From an uncultured Candidatus Saccharibacteria bacterium (GTDB lineage: Bacteria; Patescibacteriota; Minisyncoccia; Phycocordibacterales; UBA2100), in assembly GCA_964362175.1 (NCBI GenBank), contig CAYIDD010000006.1:1-54325 (forward strand): a stretch of 54,325 nt of DNA. Reading direction: 5' to 3'. Within the stretch, counting starts at the first letter, position 1, and each line of letters starts with the position of its first letter. A program made the position numbers and the translations under genes. Below, one piece after another: positions 6,516 through 53,342 of the stretch. Below the pieces are notes generated by a model. That model saw nothing but the letters and a program-made list of their open reading frames with translations, searched no databases and was not told where the DNA came from.

Positions 6516-9500
6516 TTAGAAGTTTTGAGCGCCACCTTTAAATTCGATGTCGATACCAAGCCCCCGTAAATGCCGGACCAAGACATTGAACGTAGCGGGT
6601 GTATTGCTCTCTTCGATGCGCTTGCCGGACACGATGGCATCAAAGGCTGCTGAGCGGCCAAGGATGTCGTCAGATTTGATGGTGAGGATCTCGCGGAGTG
6701 AGTATGCGGCACCGTAGCCCAAGAATGCCCAGACCTCCATTTCCCCGACACGCTGACCGCCGTTCTGTGCCTTACCACCGAGTGGCTGTTGTGTCGTGAG
6801 CGAGTATGGACCGATAGAGCGCATGTGGATCTTATCTTCCACCATGTGATGAAGCTTCAGCATGTACATAACGCCGACGGAAACCGGTTGCGCGAACGCT
6901 TCTCCGGTACGACCGTCGAAGAGGATACGTTTTCCTGTTTCGGAAACACCCGCTGCTTTCAGTTCGTCGCGGATCTCTTCTTCGGTAGCACCCGCAAACG
7001 ACGGCACGACGGCCTGATAGCCGAGCATATCTGCGGCGAGTCCGAGATGCAGCTCGAGGATCTGCCCCAAGTTCATACGCGACGGCACGCCAAGCGGGGT
7101 CAGAATGATGTCGACAGGATTACCGTCTTTGTCGAAGGGCATGTCCTCTTCCGGCAGAATGCGCGAGATAACGCCCTTGTTGCCGTGACGACCGGCGAGC
7201 TTGTCGCCGACCGAAACGGTGCGCAACTGTGCCACTTCGATGTGCACACGCTTGATGACTCCCGATTCGAGTTGATCGCCCGTCTCGCGTGAGAATATCT
7301 TGACGCCGATGACGCGACCGCGCTTGCCGCCCTCCATGCGCAAACTGGTGTCTTTCACATCCTTTGCCTTCTCACCGAAGATCGCATGCAGGAGGCGCTC
7401 TTCCGGCGTGAGCTGTGTTTCACCTTTTGGAGTGACCTTGCCGACCAAGATGTCGCCGGAGCGCACTTCTGCTCCGATACGAACCACGCCGTCCTCATCG
7501 AGGTTGCGAAGTTTGAATTCCGAGACGTTCGGGATGTCGTGCGTGGTGACCTCGGGCCCAAGCTTGGTGTCACGAACAACACAGATGAATTCCTCCATGT
7601 GAATGGAAGAGAATCGCGCTTCTTTGGCGAGTTTTTCTGAAATGACGATCGCGTCTTCGTAGTTGGCACCAAACCACGGCAAGAAGGCGACGCGCACATT
7701 CTGTCCGATAGCGAGCTGGCCGCCGACCGAGGTCGAGGTGTCGGCGAGGACGGCTCCTTTCTTGACCGAGTCGCCGACCGAAATAAGCGGACGCTGGTGG
7801 AACGTCGTAAAGCCGTTGGTTCGGGAGAAATTCACAAGCGGATATTCTTTTGTCTTTCCGTCCGCGTTTTTGACCTTGATCATTTGCGCATCGGCAAACG
7901 TGACCTCGCCCGCTTCTTCGGAAATCACGAGGCGGCCGGAGTCGCGCGCTGCGGCGCTCTCGACGCCCGTCGCGACGACTGGTGCTTCCGGGACGACCAA
8001 CGGCACTGCCTGCTTTTGCATGTTCGAACCCATGAGCGCGCGGTTCGCGTCGTCGTTCTCCACGAACGGGATGAGGGATGTTGCAACGGAGAATGGCTGA
8101 TTGGTCGCTACTTCCATGAAATCCACGTGCTCCCGCTTTACGAGCGTCGGATTTCCCTCCTTGCGTACCTCGGCCATTTTTACGGTGATGAGCCCCGAGT
8201 CGTCGCGCGGCGTCGCTGAGTGCGCGATGGCATACTGTTCTTCCTCGAGCGCATTCATGTAGACGATCTCTTTGGTGATCACTCCCTTCTCCACTTTTGC
8301 GTACGGCGTTTCGATAATGCCGAATTCGTTGGGACGTGCATAGAGAGACATGTGGAGCACAAGCCCGATGTTCTTGCCTTCCGGTGTGTGAATAGGGCAC
8401 ACGCGTCCGTAGTGCGAGGAGTGTACGTCGCGCACTTCAAGACCGGCGCGCTCGGAGGTAAGACCGCCGCGGCCGAGGGTCGAGAGCGTGCGCAAGTGCT
8501 CGATCTCGTCGAGCGTATTGTATTGCTGCATGAGCTGCGAGAGCTGGTCGGTAGTGAAAAATTCACGGATCGCCGCTTGGAACGGGCGGGGATTGACGAA
8601 GGAAACCGGATTGGTCGTCTCGGCATCCACCATCGCCATTCTGTCTTGAATATTACGCTTCATGCGTGAAAGGCCCACGCGCATACGACCCTCGAGGAGT
8701 TCGCCTGCGAATCGTACACGGCGGAATCCAAGGTGGTCGATATCGTCCGCTGTCGCGAGGGGGTCTGCGTTCAATTCCGCAATGTGGGTCACGATGCGAA
8801 TGACATCAGAAAGAGTGAGTGTCGCGTTTACCAGATCCTTCTCAGCGATCCCAAGTCCGAAGCGCCGGTTGAAGTGGAATCGGCCAACGCGTGAAAAATC
8901 GTATCGCTCGGTAGAAAGTATGGCTTCGACATGCGCACGGGCGGATTCCGGGGTCGCGATATCGCCATCGCGCAATCTTCGGTATATTTCGACGAACGCC
9001 TCTTCGGGCGTGTGCGCGTGATCGTGCTCGAGGGTCTTTGCGACCGCCTCACGGGCGAGCGGGGATTTTTCGAACTTGCTGAGGATCTCTTTTTCGCTTC
9101 CGAGACCCAAGACGCGCAGGAGTGACGTAACGGGGAACTTTCGTTTTCGGTCTATTTTGACGTAAATGCCTCCGTCAGCGTCGGATTCTATCTCGATCCA
9201 TACGCCGCGGGCGGGAATGATCTTGGCGGCAAAATAATTCTTCCCCTTGTACGGAATGGATTCGAAGAAAACGCCGTATGAGCGCGCGAGCTGGGGCACC
9301 ACGATGCGCTCAACGCCGTTGATGATGAAGGTGCCGTGCGGGGTCATCCATGGGAAATCCGCGAGGAAAATTTCCTGCTCTTTCTCCTCCCCTGTTGTTT
9401 TGTTCTTGAGACGAACCACCATGGAAAGCGGCGACTCGTATGTGCGCATCGCCCGCTTCGCGTAGTATTCGTCCCAGCGTAACTCACCGAAGGTGAATTT

Positions 9501-9695: not shown

Positions 9696-9844
9696 GACTA
9701 CAACAAGCTACCCGTGGGGCGCCTCGCGGTGCTCCAGGTGTGAATTCCGTTATTAAATTTTGTATCCAAACGCACCCTTCGGCGCCCCACCATTGCTTGA
9801 AAAGCACAACCGCAACTCAATCAGCCCGCAGCAAATGTCGCGCG

Positions 9845-9873
9845 AGTATACACGACCCCGCTTTGTCCGTCAA
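9845..9873 (-). promoter_or_regulatory. Sigma70-type promoter of rpoBC
   Basis: TTGACG-17nt-TATACT on the minus strand, about 150 nt upstream of the rpoB ATG. Confidence 0.7.
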
Positions 9874-10544
9874 GCTCCCCTCTTTGCCTTCCTCCACTCC
9901 TCAATTTTGGCGTGATGCCCGCTGAGGAGAACTTCAGGAACTTTATACTTTTTTCCTTTCCAGATGAGAACCTCCGGCCGCGTGTAGACCTCGGGGCTCG
10001 AAACGCGGCTCGCTTCGAGTGATTCGGCTTTACCCAAAACTCCCGGCACAAAACGCGTGACTGCGTCGATGACCGTCGCTGCAGGAAGCTCGCCGCCGGT
10101 CAGGACATACGGACCCATGGAGACTTTCTTCGCCTTTCCTCCGAAGGAGGATCCGCCTCCGGCGGACAATATTTTAAAGACACGTTCATCAACGCCCTCG
10201 TAGTGCCCACAGATAAAAACGATGTCTTTCTTTTGGGAAAGCTTTTTTGCCATCATCTCATCAAATACCGCGCCATCGGTCGAAAAAAATATCTTCTCGA
10301 CCCCCCTCTTGGTGCTGATCGCCCTCTGCGTCGCGCGGAGCACTCCATCCGGCTCTAGGACCATTCCCGGTCCGCCGCCATAGGGCCGGCGGTCAACGCG
10401 CCCGTACTTGTCGCGCGTGAACTTTTTTGGGTCGTAAAAAGATATTTTTATCTTTTTCGCCGCGAGCGCACGACCAATAATCGAGCTCTTCAGATACGGC
10501 TCAATGCTTTCCGGAAACAATGTTATGACGTGAAAATGAATCAT
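9870..10544 (-). CDS. trmD: tRNA (guanine37-N1)-methyltransferase
   Basis: FHVITLFPE, DRRPYGGGPGMVL, CGHYEGVDER, YVLTGGELPA, YTRP, VPEVLLSGHH. True start is the internal Met (MIHFHV). Confidence 0.96.
   Translation of the reverse strand: MIHFHVITLFPESIEPYLKSSIIGRALAAKKIKISFYDPKKFTRDKYGRVDRRPYGGGPGMVLEPDGVLRATQRAISTKRGVEKIFFSTDGAVFDEMMAKKLSQKKDIVFICGHYEGVDERVFKILSAGGGSSFGGKAKKVSMGPYVLTGGELPAATVIDAVTRFVPGVLGKAESLEASRVSSPEVYTRPEVLIWKGKKYKVPEVLLSGHHAKIEEWRKAKRGA
10137..10166. repeat. Two tandem 15-nt palindromes inserted in-frame in trmD
   Basis: TCCTCC-GAA-GGAGGA followed by TCCGCC-TCC-GGCGGA; encodes SAGGGSSFGG. Confidence 0.8.
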
Positions 10545-10576
10545 ACACTTCGCATTCCAACTTTTAGCGAGGTCGG

Positions 10577-10660
10577 CGGGGGATTCGGGAGACCCCGCAG
10601 CGCTTGGCGCGAGGACGGTACATTTTTCAGCAGAAAAATGTTGTTCTCCCGAATCCCCCG
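10577..10660. repeat. MITE/REPIN-like intergenic inverted-repeat element
   Basis: Perfect 16-bp inverted repeat CGGGGGATTCGGGAGA / TCTCCCGAATCCCCCG enclosing the hairpin ACATTTTTC-AGCA-GAAAAATGT. Confidence 0.65.
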
Positions 10661-10674
10661 ACGCCGAGCATCTC

Positions 10675-11046
10675 CTACTCACCTTTCAGGTCCTTAATAA
10701 CATCGTCAACGGTCGTGTCGCGCACGTATGGTTCGGACGGTTTTTCGCTCTCGCTGCCCATTGAACGCCCCTCCGAACTCCCACCCGTGTTTCGTTCACT
10801 CCCCTCCGGCTCTTCTATCTTGAGATTCACGCGTGCGTCGTTCTTCATGCCGACAACGCGTAAGACCGTGCGAATAGCTTTTGCGGTCGCTCCGGAGCGA
10901 CCGATAACCTTGCCCATGTCGTCTTTGTGAACGGAGAGCGTGAGGAGAACTCCCATCTCGTCAACGGTACGGTTAATTTTAACGTCGTTCGGATTGTCCA
11001 CTAATGCCTTCACCACATATTCCAGAAACTCCTGATCTCTTTCCAT
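10675..11046 (-). CDS. khpA: KH-domain RNA-binding protein (KhpA/YlqC family)
   Basis: VKALVDNP...DMGKVIGRSGATAKAIRTVL (GxxG KH loop). Sits between rpsP and trmD. Confidence 0.9.
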   Translation of the reverse strand: MERDQEFLEYVVKALVDNPNDVKINRTVDEMGVLLTLSVHKDDMGKVIGRSGATAKAIRTVLRVVGMKNDARVNLKIEEPEGSERNTGGSSEGRSMGSESEKPSEPYVRDTTVDDVIKDLKGE

Positions 11047-14556: not shown

Positions 14557-14590
14557 ACGATGAGGTTACGATGAGGTTTAACCTCATCGT
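14557..14590. repeat. REP-like palindrome upstream of RAYT-1
   Basis: Half copy ACGATGAGGTT followed by the full palindrome ACGATGAGGTT-T-AACCTCATCGT. Confidence 0.85.
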
Positions 14591-14608
14591 TCAATGTATA
14601 ATTCGGCC

Positions 14609-15313
14609 ATGGCCAACAGAAAACCGATCGAGATCGACGAGTGGTACCACTGCTACAATCGGGGAGTCGACAAACGGAGAGTGTTCCTCAACAAACGAGA
14701 TTACGAACGGATGCTTATCCTTATGTATTTGGCAAAGCATGCCCAAGCCGTTCGCCTTTTCGGTATGACTCACGCGCGGTTGAATGATGTACTCGGAAGC
14801 ACTTTGTCGAAAGAGGACAAGCCGATCGTCGAAATAGGGGCGTATGCGCTGATGCCAAACCATTTCCACTTCGTTCTTAAGGAGGTTCAAGAAGGTGGCA
14901 TTTCTCTCTTTATGCAAAAGGTATTCACTGGCTACACAATGTATTTCAATCAAAAAAATGCACGGACAGGCGCACTGTTCGCCGGTACCTTCAAATCGAA
15001 GCACATCGAAGATGACCAGTATCTGAAACATCTCGTTTCTTACGTGCACTTAAATCCGGCAGAACTCATTGATCCTCTATGGAAAGAAGGGACAAGCAAC
15101 AAGTCAGACATGGAAGAGAAACTGAGGCAGTATCCCTACTCGAGCCTACCAGAATTCTTAGGGGTGAAGCGACCCCATAGATCACTTCTCAATAACTCAA
15201 TTTTTGAGCTTTTTGAGAAGGCACCGACACTGCAACGAATGATTCATGAGGCAAAAACGTATCGAGCGCTCCAGTCCGATGAGGTTACCGATGAGGTTAA
15301 ACCTCATCGGTAG
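14609..15313 (+). CDS. REP-associated tyrosine transposase (RAYT, Y1/HUH family) 1
   Basis: YHCYNRG, HUH motif LMPNHFHF, RTGALFAGTFK, catalytic Tyr in YVHLNP, YPYSS. Flanked by palindromes. Confidence 0.88.
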   Translation: MANRKPIEIDEWYHCYNRGVDKRRVFLNKRDYERMLILMYLAKHAQAVRLFGMTHARLNDVLGSTLSKEDKPIVEIGAYALMPNHFHFVLKEVQEGGISLFMQKVFTGYTMYFNQKNARTGALFAGTFKSKHIEDDQYLKHLVSYVHLNPAELIDPLWKEGTSNKSDMEEKLRQYPYSSLPEFLGVKRPHRSLLNNSIFELFEKAPTLQRMIHEAKTYRALQSDEVTDEVKPHR

Positions 15314-15329
15314 GTTAAACCTCATCGGT
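15276..15329. repeat. REP-like palindrome cluster at the 3' end of RAYT-1
   Basis: CCGATGAGGTT, then ACCGATGAGGTT-A-AACCTCATCGGT, then AGGTTAAACCTCATCGGT. Confidence 0.85.
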
Positions 15330-15341
15330 AAGGTTATCGAT

Positions 15342-52670: not shown

Positions 52671-53342
52671 ATGCCTCTCATCCACGCACTCAACCGCGGG
52701 ACAGACAAGCGCGACATCTTTATGGACGACCATGACCGCATGCGTTTTTGCTATGGACTTTTTCTTTTTAACGACACGAGACACGTGGACATCGCTGCTC
52801 TCAAGACGAAAGGACTTCCGATGTCCTTTTTTGTGGAATCGACTCCCCCGCGCAAACGACTAGTTGATGTTCACGGGTGGTGCCTGATGACCAATCACTA
52901 TCATTTATTGCTTTCCGAACGCACGGAGAGCGGAGTGAGCCGTTTCTTGCAGAAACTTAACATCGGGTACGCGAAATATTTTAACGACCGCCACAAGCGC
53001 GTCGGGACGTTATATCAAGGACGTACCAAGCAAGTACTTATTGAGTCTGACCGACAGTTCCTGCACATTCTTAACTACATTCATTTCAACCCGCTCGATT
53101 TCCTCAATGGATCCAAGGAATGGCGGGAGCGACGCATTTCAAATACGCAAAAAGCACTCGACCATTTGAACAAGTACCGGTGGAGCAGCTACGCAACCTA
53201 TTGCGGCAAAGGAGACTTTCCCGCCATCACGACAACTGAGCTATTTGCCGACGTTTTCAAGGATTATAAGCGGGAGGTTGTGGGATATTTGCACGATATC
53301 GAGATCGAGAGTATCCAACTTGACGGCCTAAACCTTGAGTAA
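52671..53342 (+). CDS. REP-associated tyrosine transposase (RAYT, Y1/HUH family) 2
   Basis: HALNRG, HUH motif LMTNHYHL, RVGTLYQGR, YIHFNP, YRWSS. Flanked by palindromes. Confidence 0.88.
   Translation: MPLIHALNRGTDKRDIFMDDHDRMRFCYGLFLFNDTRHVDIAALKTKGLPMSFFVESTPPRKRLVDVHGWCLMTNHYHLLLSERTESGVSRFLQKLNIGYAKYFNDRHKRVGTLYQGRTKQVLIESDRQFLHILNYIHFNPLDFLNGSKEWRERRISNTQKALDHLNKYRWSSYATYCGKGDFPAITTTELFADVFKDYKREVVGYLHDIEIESIQLDGLNLE
52809..52833. repeat. REP-like copy inside the RAYT-2 coding sequence
   Basis: AAAGGAC-TTCCGAT-GTCCTTTTTTG, read as KGLPMSFF. Confidence 0.85.

Follow-up and report, generated by a model that had tools for sequence, protein, structure and literature searches.

A 30-bp double-hairpin repeat found in reading frame within essential genes across many unrelated bacteria of groundwater

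A double hairpin inside trmD

The window analyzed here comprises 54,325 nucleotides of a contig from an uncultured Candidatus Saccharibacteria bacterium, whose 780-kb genome is termed G000. On its minus strand, at positions 9870-10544, lies trmD, which encodes tRNA (guanine37-N1)-methyltransferase and matches Pfam PF01746 with an E-value of 1e-39. Sequence and orthologue alignment reveal that codons 127-136 of this gene (10137-10166, minus strand), which read SAGGGSSFGG, are an in-frame insertion of a 30-bp double-hairpin element. The plus strand reads TCCTCCGAAGGAGGA at 10137-10151 and TCCGCCTCCGGCGGA at 10152-10166, and each of these segments is a perfect palindrome with a 6-bp stem and a 3-nt loop. 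On the coding strand, the first hairpin (10152-10166, minus strand) is TCCGCC-GGA-GGCGGA, encoding S A G G G, and the second (10137-10151, minus strand) is TCCTCC-TTC-GGAGGA, encoding S S F G G. An earlier note on this DNA had reported two abutting 15-nt palindromes that occupy exactly ten TrmD codons, with one C-GNA-G loop on each strand. Both observations are confirmed, the loops being C-GAA-G on the plus strand and C-GGA-G on the minus strand.

When folded as single-stranded DNA, either strand of the TrmD element is predicted to form the two hairpins, with energies of -11.0 and -11.2 kcal/mol (z -3.5 and -2.8). Codon counts from a crude set of 463 genes put TCC at 19% of serine codons, GCC at 23% of alanine codons, and GGA and GGC at 21.5% and 37% of glycine codons. 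Given the peptide SAGGGSSFGG, this codon usage yields a probability of ~6e-6 for the palindromic codons; thus, the TrmD palindromes reflect neither chance nor codon bias. An Rfam search of positions 9800-10750, with E-values up to 1, produced no match.

The insert is present in only one of 28 aligned TrmD orthologues, that of the relative G011, which carries it at the same site. The 30 nucleotides are identical in G000 and G011, whereas 10 of the 51 flanking nucleotides shown differ. The other 27 orthologues lack the insert, in agreement with the earlier note's proposal that dropping the ten codons restores the usual TrmD spacing, and no orthologue was found that conserves the peptide with synonymous changes that break the palindromes. 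Alignment with TrmD of H. influenzae (4ypw_A) places a 10-residue gap exactly at the insert. An AF2 model of TrmD depicts the insert as a coil between a helix (residues 120-127) and a strand (138-142), and the structure, as modeled, tolerates it.

A repeat family with filled and empty sites

The genome G000 contains 13 adjacent double hairpins, which establishes that the motif is repeated genome-wide, as had been suspected. The double is the repeat unit. No solo hairpin was detected inside a G000 gene, and only one was found elsewhere (C10:19747, upstream of nusA). This same copy was the only solo hairpin that emerged when G000 was searched for long elements bounded by single hairpins. Within the genus, 40 of 116 genomes carry 1-32 copies, and a reversed-pattern control gave zero matches in all 116. 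The genome G011 has 42 sites. Among close kin with RpoB identity of 93-94%, copy counts span 0 to 32.

The family has the form TCC[G/T]CC-NNA-GG[C/A]GGA followed directly by TCC[G/T]CC-TNN-GG[C/A]GGA, two palindromes that together span 30 bp. Strong conservation across phyla marks the arms, and the loops, together with the residues they encode, are unconstrained. The arm types TCCTCC/GGAGGA and TCCGCC/GGCGGA are correctly paired in 44 of 48 elements from G000 and G011, stem variants are compensated (TCT..AGA, CCC..GGG), and GGCGGA arms are the commonest form outside the genus. Identical 30-mers recur up to 12 times among 129 copies. Complementary loops would point to an origin of the whole 30-mer by fold-back; such loops occur in 20 of the 129 copies, against 22.8 expected, and hence give no such sign.

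The element begins with TCC and ends with GGA, and is embedded in symmetric flanks that define the insertion-site consensus TTN|NAA (T at position -2 in 200 of 258 pooled flanks). In trmD, the half-site 5' of the element is the codon TTG (Leu126; 10167-10169, minus strand), which pre-exists in empty orthologous sites, and the half-site 3' of the element is AAG (Lys137; 10134-10136, minus strand), which is AAA or AAG in empty orthologues. The half-sites are already present in the empty sites ATATTG|AAAGCA (trmD of G021), TTCGTC|AAAGGC and AAGTTC|GAAAAA. The last of these lies between codons 208 and 209 of the window's own rpoB (AAG TTC|GAA AAA; 9069-9074, minus strand), which is empty in G000 and filled in four relatives (G021, G017, G108 and G107). 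Conversely, a PurT-like gene is filled in G000 and empty in G117, G021 and G044. For TrmD, the PurT-like gene and rpoB, the filled site minus the empty site is exactly 30 bp, with no target duplication. In GlmS, the copies of G000 and G011 mark two positions that lie three codons apart. At a fourth site, in a PLP decarboxylase, the empty sequence is uncertain because the comparison is with distant orthologues of 62% and 36% identity. The TrmD and rpoB sites, which are filled in several relatives, could date from early insertions that were later lost in places, instead of having been gained repeatedly.

Codon phase, gene context and distribution

At least 9 of the 13 copies in G000 reside inside Pfam-supported genes, and all nine are in the same codon phase, designated phase 0. 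The host genes encode GlmS, an HD hydrolase, a carbamoyltransferase, an AMP-binding enzyme, a PLP decarboxylase, DnaK, the PurT-like enzyme, TrmD and a class-I aaRS. Phase 0 also holds for 34 of the 36 copies that lie within Pfam-supported ORFs of other phyla. Thus, S-[A/S]-x-G-G is encoded twice in 43 of 45 Pfam-supported cases (binomial P ~1e-18 against an expectation of one third), a frame bias within coding sequences that the earlier note had proposed to look for. Its view of a repeated 30-nt micro-element that encodes Gly/Ser/Ala loops within loops of core proteins is therefore supported. For 54 of 80 copies in other genomes, the longest spanning ORF gives phase 0; such an ORF was the only guide to phase in G011 and in ORFs that lack a Pfam match. 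The strict phase-0 rule implies translation of the insert, and translational bypass and RNA-level removal were rejected on this ground.

Some copies do not contribute this peptide. Two sit in phase 1, one of which, in an IscS, reads LRQRRIRLGR, and others precede start codons, by 7 nt in an integrase gene and by 10 nt in rplN. In addition, all nine occurrences of the decapeptide motif in G000 use palindromic codons, even though TCC, GCC and GGA are minority codons. The codon-usage probability given above, the copies upstream of start codons and the phase-1 copy in IscS establish that the constraint acts on DNA and not on the peptide.

The exact pattern is detected in species-representative genomes of many phyla, with more than 116 matches among those listed, whereas the chance expectation for 44 bits in 596 Gb is ~0.03. 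The loci of these listed matches range in GC content from 35 to 71%, and their contigs include some of 868 kb and 1.6 Mb. Five metagenome-assembled genomes (MAGs), non-CPR or other, contain 58, 24, 37, 27 and 5 copies, and controls contain none; phylum labels here are those of MAG record titles, which are subject to possible binning errors. A scan of IMG/VR viral contigs gave two matches only and so does not point to carriage by phages. The earlier note did not foresee the spread across phyla, the symmetry of the TTN|NAA target or the intergenic copies.

Contigs from groundwater metagenomes also exhibit the repeat. Summed depth rises from ~8 to 1046 (X1), 572 (X2) and 465 (X4) exactly over the element, and the repeat has sharply defined edges at 10133-10137 and 10166-10170. 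Loose contig ends at the TrmD element lead into heterogeneous flanks. De Bruijn unitigs break at the element, which indicates that assemblers struggle with it. Four public runs compared with positions 9700-10700 contained no contig that skips the 30 nucleotides and no indel row; because contigs drop rare variants, this result is uninformative with regard to polymorphism within populations, and the best-matching runs may be the window's own source.

Possible origin and mobility, and relation to known elements

The repeat thus occupies essential genes, in reading frame, across many unrelated bacteria of groundwater, and adds a short Gly/Ser loop to each protein. We consider that the TrmD insert is probably one copy of a selfish, non-autonomous family of palindromic DNA repeats. 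On the basis of events read from sequence comparison, a mobile or proliferating insertion element is, by a slight further margin, the probable nature of the family. New copies would enter as exactly 30 bp at TTN|NAA without target duplication, the element being copied or cut and pasted. It may travel as single-stranded DNA folded into hairpins, on which an enzyme specific for hairpins would act in trans, as in IS200/IS605-type excision. Because the element is almost its own reverse complement, either strand reads Ser-(Ala/Ser)-x-Gly-Gly twice in one codon phase, which presumably yields a flexible, hydrophilic loop. Phase-0 copies in surface loops, linkers and tails of proteins would be tolerated, as would copies in short 5' leaders, and insertions in other phases, which are Arg-rich or Pro-rich, would mostly be purged. 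Survival inside genes would then follow from the fact that either strand encodes a flexible loop.

As the mover, an HUH/Y1 enzyme is a possible candidate, albeit one that we regard as somewhat unlikely, with the remaining probability assigned to another enzyme or to template switching during replication. Cas1-type spacer integration and DDE transposition were set aside, because both duplicate target DNA and there is no target duplication at the element.

The specific proposal that a RAYT moves the element, with the window's Y1 genes acting on the double hairpin as a REP-type substrate, appears unlikely. Of three Y1_Tnp matches in G000, two fall in the window. On either side of the Y1 gene at 14771-15049 stands a different hairpin, cgATGAGGTTnAACCTCATcg (at 14572 and 15292), which belongs to a TGAGGT family with 11 perfect copies in the genome. 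Because this RAYT is accompanied by its own hairpins, the suggested RAYT movement is not supported. The earlier note itself gave the caveat that the element does not match the REPs of the window's two RAYTs. That note had also called for a search for a RAYT flanked by the double hairpin, and there is none in G000, where every double hairpin is more than 3 kb away from the Y1 matches. In favor of such an enzyme, Y1 genes occur in 108 of the 116 genus genomes, with or without the element, and in all five carrier genomes of other phyla compared with 6 of 14 control genomes. Carriers within the genus also have somewhat more Y1 matches than do the other genomes (median 4 versus 2). However, the correlation between Y1_Tnp count and element count is weak (rho 0.23, P 0.014), is uncorrected for kinship, genome size or completeness, and is not taken as support. 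Moreover, most of the 76 genus genomes without the element still have Y1 genes, whereas G077 has 12 elements and no Y1 match, in a genome that is 69% complete. The element also lacks the GTAG/CGTC tag of REP superfamilies, and its perfect palindromes provide no strand asymmetry. A Y1 transposase of the IS200/IS605 type does recognize hairpins at element ends and forms circular single-stranded DNA intermediates, according to the account in PMC6006769.

Other explanations do not require a mobile element. Conservation and compensation of the arms across phyla, with loops left free, would be expected also of a functional nucleic-acid motif that is kept by hosts and spreads with transferred genes. 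Such a binding site or structural signal could, for example, be of the recombinase type, with GGATCC between inverted arms, or could pause translation, mimic a ribosome-binding site or stabilize mRNA. The sharing of the same 6-nt arms across phyla could, in this regard, reflect binding by a conserved host factor, and hence function. The layout is one of 12-nt inverted arms around a 6-nt center, several copies lie 7-10 nt before starts, and GGAGGA and GGCGGA arms resemble a ribosome-binding site. However, the GGCGGA arms that predominate outside the genus are poor mimics of such a site, and Rfam holds no match. The copies reside in unrelated places of unrelated genes with no gene class or position in common, and their number varies from 0 to 32 among close kin whose orthologous sites are freely empty. 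We therefore judge function to be still less probable than movement by a RAYT. Selection on the peptide, with SxxGGSxxGG serving as a useful linker or modification motif and palindromy as a side effect, is highly improbable. The sequence is a plausible flexible linker, forms a coil in the TrmD model and is found in the naturally flexible DnaK tail and DnaJ G/F region, but it is written in palindromic minority codons in nine of nine G000 occurrences, the residues encoded by the loops are unconstrained, and copies exist outside genes and in phase 1.

Template-switch mutation creates and perfects palindromes, and the flanks have a TT/AA bias resembling microhomology. A local origin at each site, by slippage or template switching in GGA/TCC-rich DNA with likeness arising by convergence, is nevertheless very improbable, since the empty sites ATATTG|AAAGCA, TTCGTC|AAAGGC and AAGTTC|GAAAAA hold no template for the arms, and the same 30-mer, identical in up to 12 of 129 copies, occurs in loci of widely different GC content in many phyla. 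Template switching that copies in an existing element from elsewhere is counted under the preferred explanation of a proliferating repeat. The breaking of De Bruijn unitigs at the element might suggest an artefact of assembly, library preparation or contamination, which we regard as the least credible of these alternatives. Two species with diverged flanks carry the insert in frame at one and the same codon, its loops vary between copies, the flanks are host genes, and the MAGs derive, by record titles, from many projects and include the long contigs noted above.

A literature search, which extended to few subscription journals and to no supplements, found Rickettsia palindromic elements (RPEs), REPs, PARCELs and mitochondrial elements, and no description of the 30-bp element. 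RPEs, as described in PMC10969869 and PMC3733652, are palindromic repeats found in frame in unrelated housekeeping genes, to which they add peptides that seem compatible with function; the former source describes ten families of ~150 bp that are confined to Rickettsia. The element similarly is a palindromic, in-frame insertion in unrelated functional genes. It is set apart from RPEs as described by its size of 30 bp, its symmetry, the similar peptide from either strand, and its presence in CPR and many phyla. REPs are GC-rich palindromic repeats of 20-40 bp whose copy number varies between relatives and some of which are intragenic, and they have a GTAG or CGTC tag at one end, are mostly downstream of genes and flank RAYT genes (as characterized in PMC3733652). 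The element resembles them in being 30 bp long and multi-copy (13 copies in G000, and as many as 58 in a genome elsewhere), but it is untagged, mostly intragenic and codon-phased, and does not flank RAYTs. MITEs, by the same description (PMC3733652), are 70-300 bp long with terminal inverted repeats of 15-30 bp, whereas the element has 30 bp in total and 6-nt arms, and lacks a target-site duplication at TrmD, the PurT-like gene and rpoB.

Mitochondrial double-hairpin elements and GC clusters, fungal and other, consist of two adjacent short GC-rich hairpins that have spread in a compact genome, including coding regions. These elements are organellar, differ in sequence and are variable in length, and we know of no symmetric target or codon-phase rule for them. 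The element shares with this family, as generally defined, the unit of two adjacent hairpins and the occurrence in coding regions; it differs in being bacterial, fixed at 30 bp and directed to a symmetric target. IS200/IS605 elements, which move by single-strand "peel and paste" and also have transposase-less derivatives, produce no target duplication and reseal the donor exactly. They are hundreds of bases long, with imperfect, asymmetric hairpins and a target motif on one side. Likewise, empty sites here equal filled sites minus 30 bp. Hairpins are present at both ends of the element, and joined ends would recreate the GGA|TCC junction of the element's own center. Unlike IS200/IS605, however, the whole element is two perfect hairpins, its TTN|NAA target is symmetric and it has no linked transposase. 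PARCELs are coding DNA with dyad symmetry, punctate across distant microbes, for which horizontal transfer was proposed; they consist of a 25-residue amphipathic domain repeated in tandem, in ORFs that have no known function (as presented in PMC2996958). The element shares the dyad-symmetric coding DNA and the punctate distribution across distant microbes, but it consists of single 10-codon insertions in core enzymes and not of tandem arrays.

A broader reading, for and against which we see even chances, is that the repeat represents a new class of very small mobile DNA. Such an element would be a 30-nt symmetric double hairpin that encodes a harmless Gly/Ser loop from either strand and jumps, without duplication, into TTN|NAA, possibly as a closed, 30-nt single-stranded dumbbell. 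It would have crossed many bacterial phyla that share groundwater and sediment, and one decapeptide would thereby have entered RNA polymerase, DnaK, ribosomal proteins, tRNA synthetases and TrmD alike. The enzyme activity that moves it would be specific for hairpins and either new or previously unrecognized.

If the preferred reading is correct, a repeat of 30 bp can invade even the most compact of bacterial genomes because both of its strands can be translated, which would make it an extreme example of selfish DNA adapted to life inside genes. The repeat would serve as a natural tag for DNA exchange where CPR and other phyla share a habitat, would recurrently introduce indels into "universal" phylogeny markers (RpoB, RpoC, ribosomal proteins and aaRSs), and would be a source of breaks in metagenome assemblies. 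The copies would also amount to a natural inventory of loop positions at which essential enzymes permit insertions. The mover, once found, could provide a small DNA insertion activity that is sequence-defined and leaves no scar.

A ten-codon insertion in TrmD

The trmD gene (9870-10544, minus strand; Pfam PF01746, E 1e-39) contains two perfect palindromes that directly abut, each a 6-bp stem closed by a 3-nt loop. These are TCCTCCGAAGGAGGA at 10137-10151 and TCCGCCTCCGGCGGA at 10152-10166, as read on the plus strand, and together they make up codons 127-136, which encode SAGGGSSFGG. When folded as single-stranded DNA, both strands give exactly two hairpins (-11.0 and -11.2 kcal/mol; z of -3.5 and -2.8 relative to shuffles).

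TrmD was detected in 37 of 41 related genomes, and 28 orthologues (21 from the same genus and seven from the same order) were aligned. The ten residues are missing from 27 of these and are present in G011 alone, a related genome in which they likewise lie between KIL/KVL and KAKK. An earlier note, based on the sequence alone, had described an element inserted into the gene, with one C-GNA-G loop on each strand; the loops are indeed C-GAA-G on the plus strand and C-GGA-G on the minus strand, and the alignment agrees with an insertion. The nearest allele without the element, in G021 (85% protein identity), has the sequence ATATTG|AAAGCA, and the filled alleles equal the empty one plus exactly 30 bases, with no duplication. 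These 30 bases are identical in G011 and G000 (the genome of the window); the flanks differ at 10 of the 51 bases shown in the comparison, and the two proteins are 79% identical. In the alignment with TrmD of Haemophilus influenzae (4ypw_A), a 10-residue gap falls opposite the insert, which an AlphaFold2 model (27-sequence alignment, mean pLDDT 78.8) places as coil between a helix (120-127) and a strand (138-142). Judged from these alignments, the ten-codon segment is an insertion.

The palindromes are not explained by codon usage. Within their codon families, TCC, GCC and GGA have shares of 19%, 23% and 21.5% in G000, and the chance of obtaining the palindromic TrmD codons from this usage is ~6e-6. 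In a crude set of 463 G000 genes, all nine occurrences of the decapeptide motif are the DNA element, and 14 of the 25 S[A/S]xGG pentapeptides in that genome are perfectly palindromic, all 14 inside double hairpins. Constraint on the element acts at the level of DNA.

A perfect 16-nt inverted repeat occupies the spacer upstream of trmD (CGGGGGATTCGGGAGA at 10577-10592, with its complement at 10645-10660). Metagenome contig depth at 10584-10651 is 5-8 times that of the flanks in some runs, and one copy related to this repeat (10577-10660) was found, at G000:C1:29216.

Copies within the genome and the genus

G000 (780 kb in 26 contigs) contains 389 perfect 6+3+6 hairpins. TCCGCC (nine copies) and TCCTCC (eight copies) are two of its three commonest stems of this kind, and nearly all of these hairpins occur in abutting pairs. 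Double hairpins number 13, comprising 11 with TCC/CCC/TCT-type arms and two that are divergent, and one solo hairpin of the element type, upstream of nusA. Nine doubles reside in Pfam-supported genes, which encode GlmS, an HD hydrolase, an Asp/Orn carbamoyltransferase, an AMP-binding enzyme, a PLP decarboxylase, DnaK, a PurT-like ATP-grasp enzyme, TrmD and a class-I aminoacyl-tRNA synthetase; each of the nine has the phase in which S/P-[A/S]-x-G-G/R is encoded twice. The ORF of ribosomal protein S10 contains a further in-phase copy, 33 codons ahead of the S10 domain. Two copies are in 5' leaders and stop 7 and 10 nt short of the ATG of an integrase gene and of rplN, and one lies outside any long ORF. 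G000 also carries a homopolymer palindrome (G000:C4:56918-56965), in which ~10 or more C are directly followed by a run of G. Orthologous stretches of G000 share 72-75% DNA identity with loci titled Candidatus Kaiserbacteria.

With at most one mismatch, the element pattern is found in 40 of 116 genomes of the genus, at 1-32 copies each; a reversed-pattern control gave 0 copies in each of the 116. The nearest relatives of G000, with 93-94% RpoB identity, have 0, 13, 0, 1, 0, 0, 32, 3, 1, 9, 25 and 1 copies, and lineages farther away in the genus have 18-27. G011 has 42 sites at up to two mismatches and several genes with two copies; 33 of its 38 analysed sites are in phase 0 (S-[A/S]-x-G-G twice) of the longest spanning ORF, with phase set by ORF length alone.

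Orthologous sites in the genus are either filled or empty and differ by exactly 30 bp, in a comparison of alleles that takes gains and precise losses together. In the PurT-like gene, G000 has the element, and G117, G021 and G044 have an empty site (TTCGTC|AAAGGC). In the glutaminase-domain loop of GlmS, four relatives are empty, and the copies of G000 and G011 (loci L031 and L201) are an identical 30-mer (SAEGGSSSGG) placed three codons apart. Thus, this loop seems to have been hit twice, which points either to a hot target or to strong selection for the positions at which an insertion is tolerated. In the window itself, rpoB has an empty site (AAG TTC|GAA AAA, 9072|9071) that is filled in G021, G108 and G017 by double hairpins with different loops, the G017 copy being a compensated stem variant. 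In G107, the site (locus L216, G107:C9:2035-5253; RpoB codons about 208-228) holds a composite of ~20 codons, probably a complete copy nested before the AAA loop of a degraded older copy. G011 has, beside its 93% copy, a second, divergent RpoB-like match (G011:C10:1175-4315; 66% identity to G000 RpoB), which may reflect MAG contamination or a second organism in the bin.

Distribution across phyla, anatomy and target

When one genome of each prokaryotic species was scanned for exact matches (596 Gb in all), at least 116 stretches were obtained; the pattern carries ~44 bits, so that, by arithmetic, DNA of that total length and even composition would contain ~0.03 matches. Among the matches listed, the titles of the MAG records, from which phylum names are taken, include many CPR candidate phyla, Omnitrophota, Elusimicrobia, Kiritimatiellae, Lentisphaerae, Verrucomicrobiota, Ignavibacteria, Bacteroidota, Planctomycetales, Chloroflexota, Firestonebacteria, one Desulfotomaculaceae MAG and Gammaproteobacteria-labelled MAGs. 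The GC content of carrier loci is 35-71%. Five carrier genomes among the matches listed have 58, 24, 37, 27 and 5 copies, with 0 in controls, and viral contigs gave two matches only.

The longest spanning ORF, which sets the phase of copies without Pfam support, is in phase 0 for 54 of 80 copies from other genomes. Outside the genus, 41 of 70 scanned host ORFs have a Pfam match, and 34 of these 41 are phase-0 hosts. Their products include DnaG, a class-II aminoacyl-tRNA synthetase, CysRS, PheRS, RpoC, DnaE, the Pol I 5'-3' exonuclease, ribosomal proteins S3, S9 and L15, GrpE, DnaJ, MurD, MraY, FolD and TsaE. In five of the 41, the element precedes the start of the family model and is therefore probably in the 5' leader, and two have internal phase-1 copies. 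One of the latter (L151:451-480, from a MAG titled Candidatus Moranbacteria) is an Arg-rich copy in IscS; its residues LRQRRIRLGR are really extra relative to solved IscS structures, and phase 0 is closed because of a TAG in the second loop. The other lies in a YfiH homologue, inside an extra region of ~87 residues. Repetition across the genome and a bias of frame within coding sequences were checks that the earlier note called for. The former is borne out by the doubles of G000, and the latter by 43 of 45 intragenic, Pfam-supported copies in phase 0 (G000 and other phyla; P ~1e-18 versus one third).

In groundwater metagenome contigs from two studies, whose best-matching runs may be the source of the window itself, summed depth rises from ~8 to 1046, 572, 465 and 58, and the rise coincides exactly with the element. 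Contigs begin or end at 10137 and 10164, and heterogeneous loose ends extend from 10133-10135 and 10166-10170. The depth and the contig ends therefore indicate a repeat that is common in the groundwater community and has sharp 30-nt borders.

Anatomy was drawn from 129 copies. The arms are TCCGCC/GGCGGA in 188 hairpins and TCCTCC/GGAGGA in 44, with compensated variants (TCT..AGA, CCC..GGG and TCGGCC..GGCCGA) and few mismatched pairs. Of 48 elements in G000 and G011, 32 combine a hairpin of one arm type with a hairpin of the other, and 44 retain local pairing where the arms vary; in other phyla, 69 of 81 elements have all-GCC arms. These mixes look like lineage-specific subfamilies. Many copies in G135 (a MAG titled Omnitrophota) have outer arms TCCTCC/GGAGGA and inner arms GGCGGA/TCCGCC, such that the whole 30-mer is palindromic and each small hairpin is mismatched, the opposite of pairing in the G000 genus.

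The first loop is NNA (GGA, AAA, GAA, AGA and others) and the second is TNN (TCC, TTT, TTC, TCT and others), which makes the centre a palindrome of 14 nt, AGGCGGATCCGCCT. Complementarity between the two loops of an element is not above chance (20 of 129, versus 22.8 expected). As judged from these copies, the element approximates its own reverse complement and lacks intrinsic polarity; because of this near symmetry, the encoded peptide is of one kind whichever way the element is oriented. With both sides pooled, the flanks have T at -3 (~0.55), T at -2 (~0.78; 200/258) and T at -1 (~0.5, with A nearly absent), for a consensus of TTN|NAA. Because empty alleles already have the half-sites (TTG|AAA, GTC|AAA and TTC|GAA), this consensus reflects a preference of the insertion process and is not part of the element.

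Related elements and possible movers

In shape, the nearest elements are the double-hairpin elements of mitochondria. The element resembles Rickettsia palindromic elements (RPEs) in its in-frame insertion into housekeeping genes; passages of PMC10969869 describe RPEs as ~150 bp long and restricted to one genus. REPs, according to portions of PMC3733652, are palindromes of 20-40 bp, some of them intragenic, and are defined by GTAG/CGTC tags and RAYT association, whereas the element has neither. PARCELs, according to PMC2996958, are palindromic repeats within coding sequence whose distribution across kingdoms is punctate; they form tandem 25-residue domains, and these domains set them apart from the element. 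We rate the element as a REP-like or RPE-like intragenic palindromic repeat. No description of it was found in the literature searched in full text, which covers few subscription journals. Its 30-bp size, two-strand coding symmetry, symmetric duplication-free target and cross-phylum spread are features for which we have seen no description.

Exact 30-bp insertion without duplication has occurred repeatedly, at sites that are polymorphic, and the element is spread across phyla. We infer that it is selfish DNA that multiplies within genomes and is passed between them, and that it presumably persists in gene-dense genomes because either strand, in one phase, encodes a flexible Ser/Ala-x-Gly-Gly loop. 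Such an insert would be tolerated in loops, linkers and tails, and Arg-rich and Pro-rich phases would mostly be eliminated by selection. The codon-phase filter is strong, not absolute.

The earlier note considered a RAYT a plausible mover. Y1 genes (Y1_Tnp-domain transposase-like genes) are present in 108 of 116 genus genomes and in five of five other-phylum carriers, and their count correlates weakly with element copy number, uncorrected for kinship. However, the Y1 gene of the window is flanked by different hairpins of its own, and no Y1 gene resides beside an element copy in the genomes examined, so that the proposal is not supported. Single-strand peel-and-paste transposition yields exact empty sites, leaves no duplication and involves hairpins at both ends, as seen for the element. 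Known IS200/IS605 and REP/RAYT systems do not fit its symmetric target, perfect palindromes and lack of a linked transposase. Joining the element end to end would create the same GGA|TCC junction as is found at its centre, which makes a closed dumbbell of 30 nt conceivable as an intermediate. It is also possible that the element is copied in by template switching from an existing copy, which would need no dedicated enzyme and could use the TT/AA microhomology.

The Y1_Tnp (RAYT-like) match at 14771-15049 has hairpins cgATGAGGTTnAACCTCATcg on both sides, at 14572 and 15292, and a partial repeat follows the latter (region 14560-15330). TGAGGT-NNN-ACCTCA is the commonest perfect 6+3+6 hairpin in G000, with 11 copies in two subtypes, and the Y1 gene with these hairpins looks like a REPtron that has its own REP family. 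A second Y1_Tnp-domain match (52863-53027, E 2e-6; open frame of 251 aa) lies near the window end, and a third, weaker match is at G000:C4:70970-71230.
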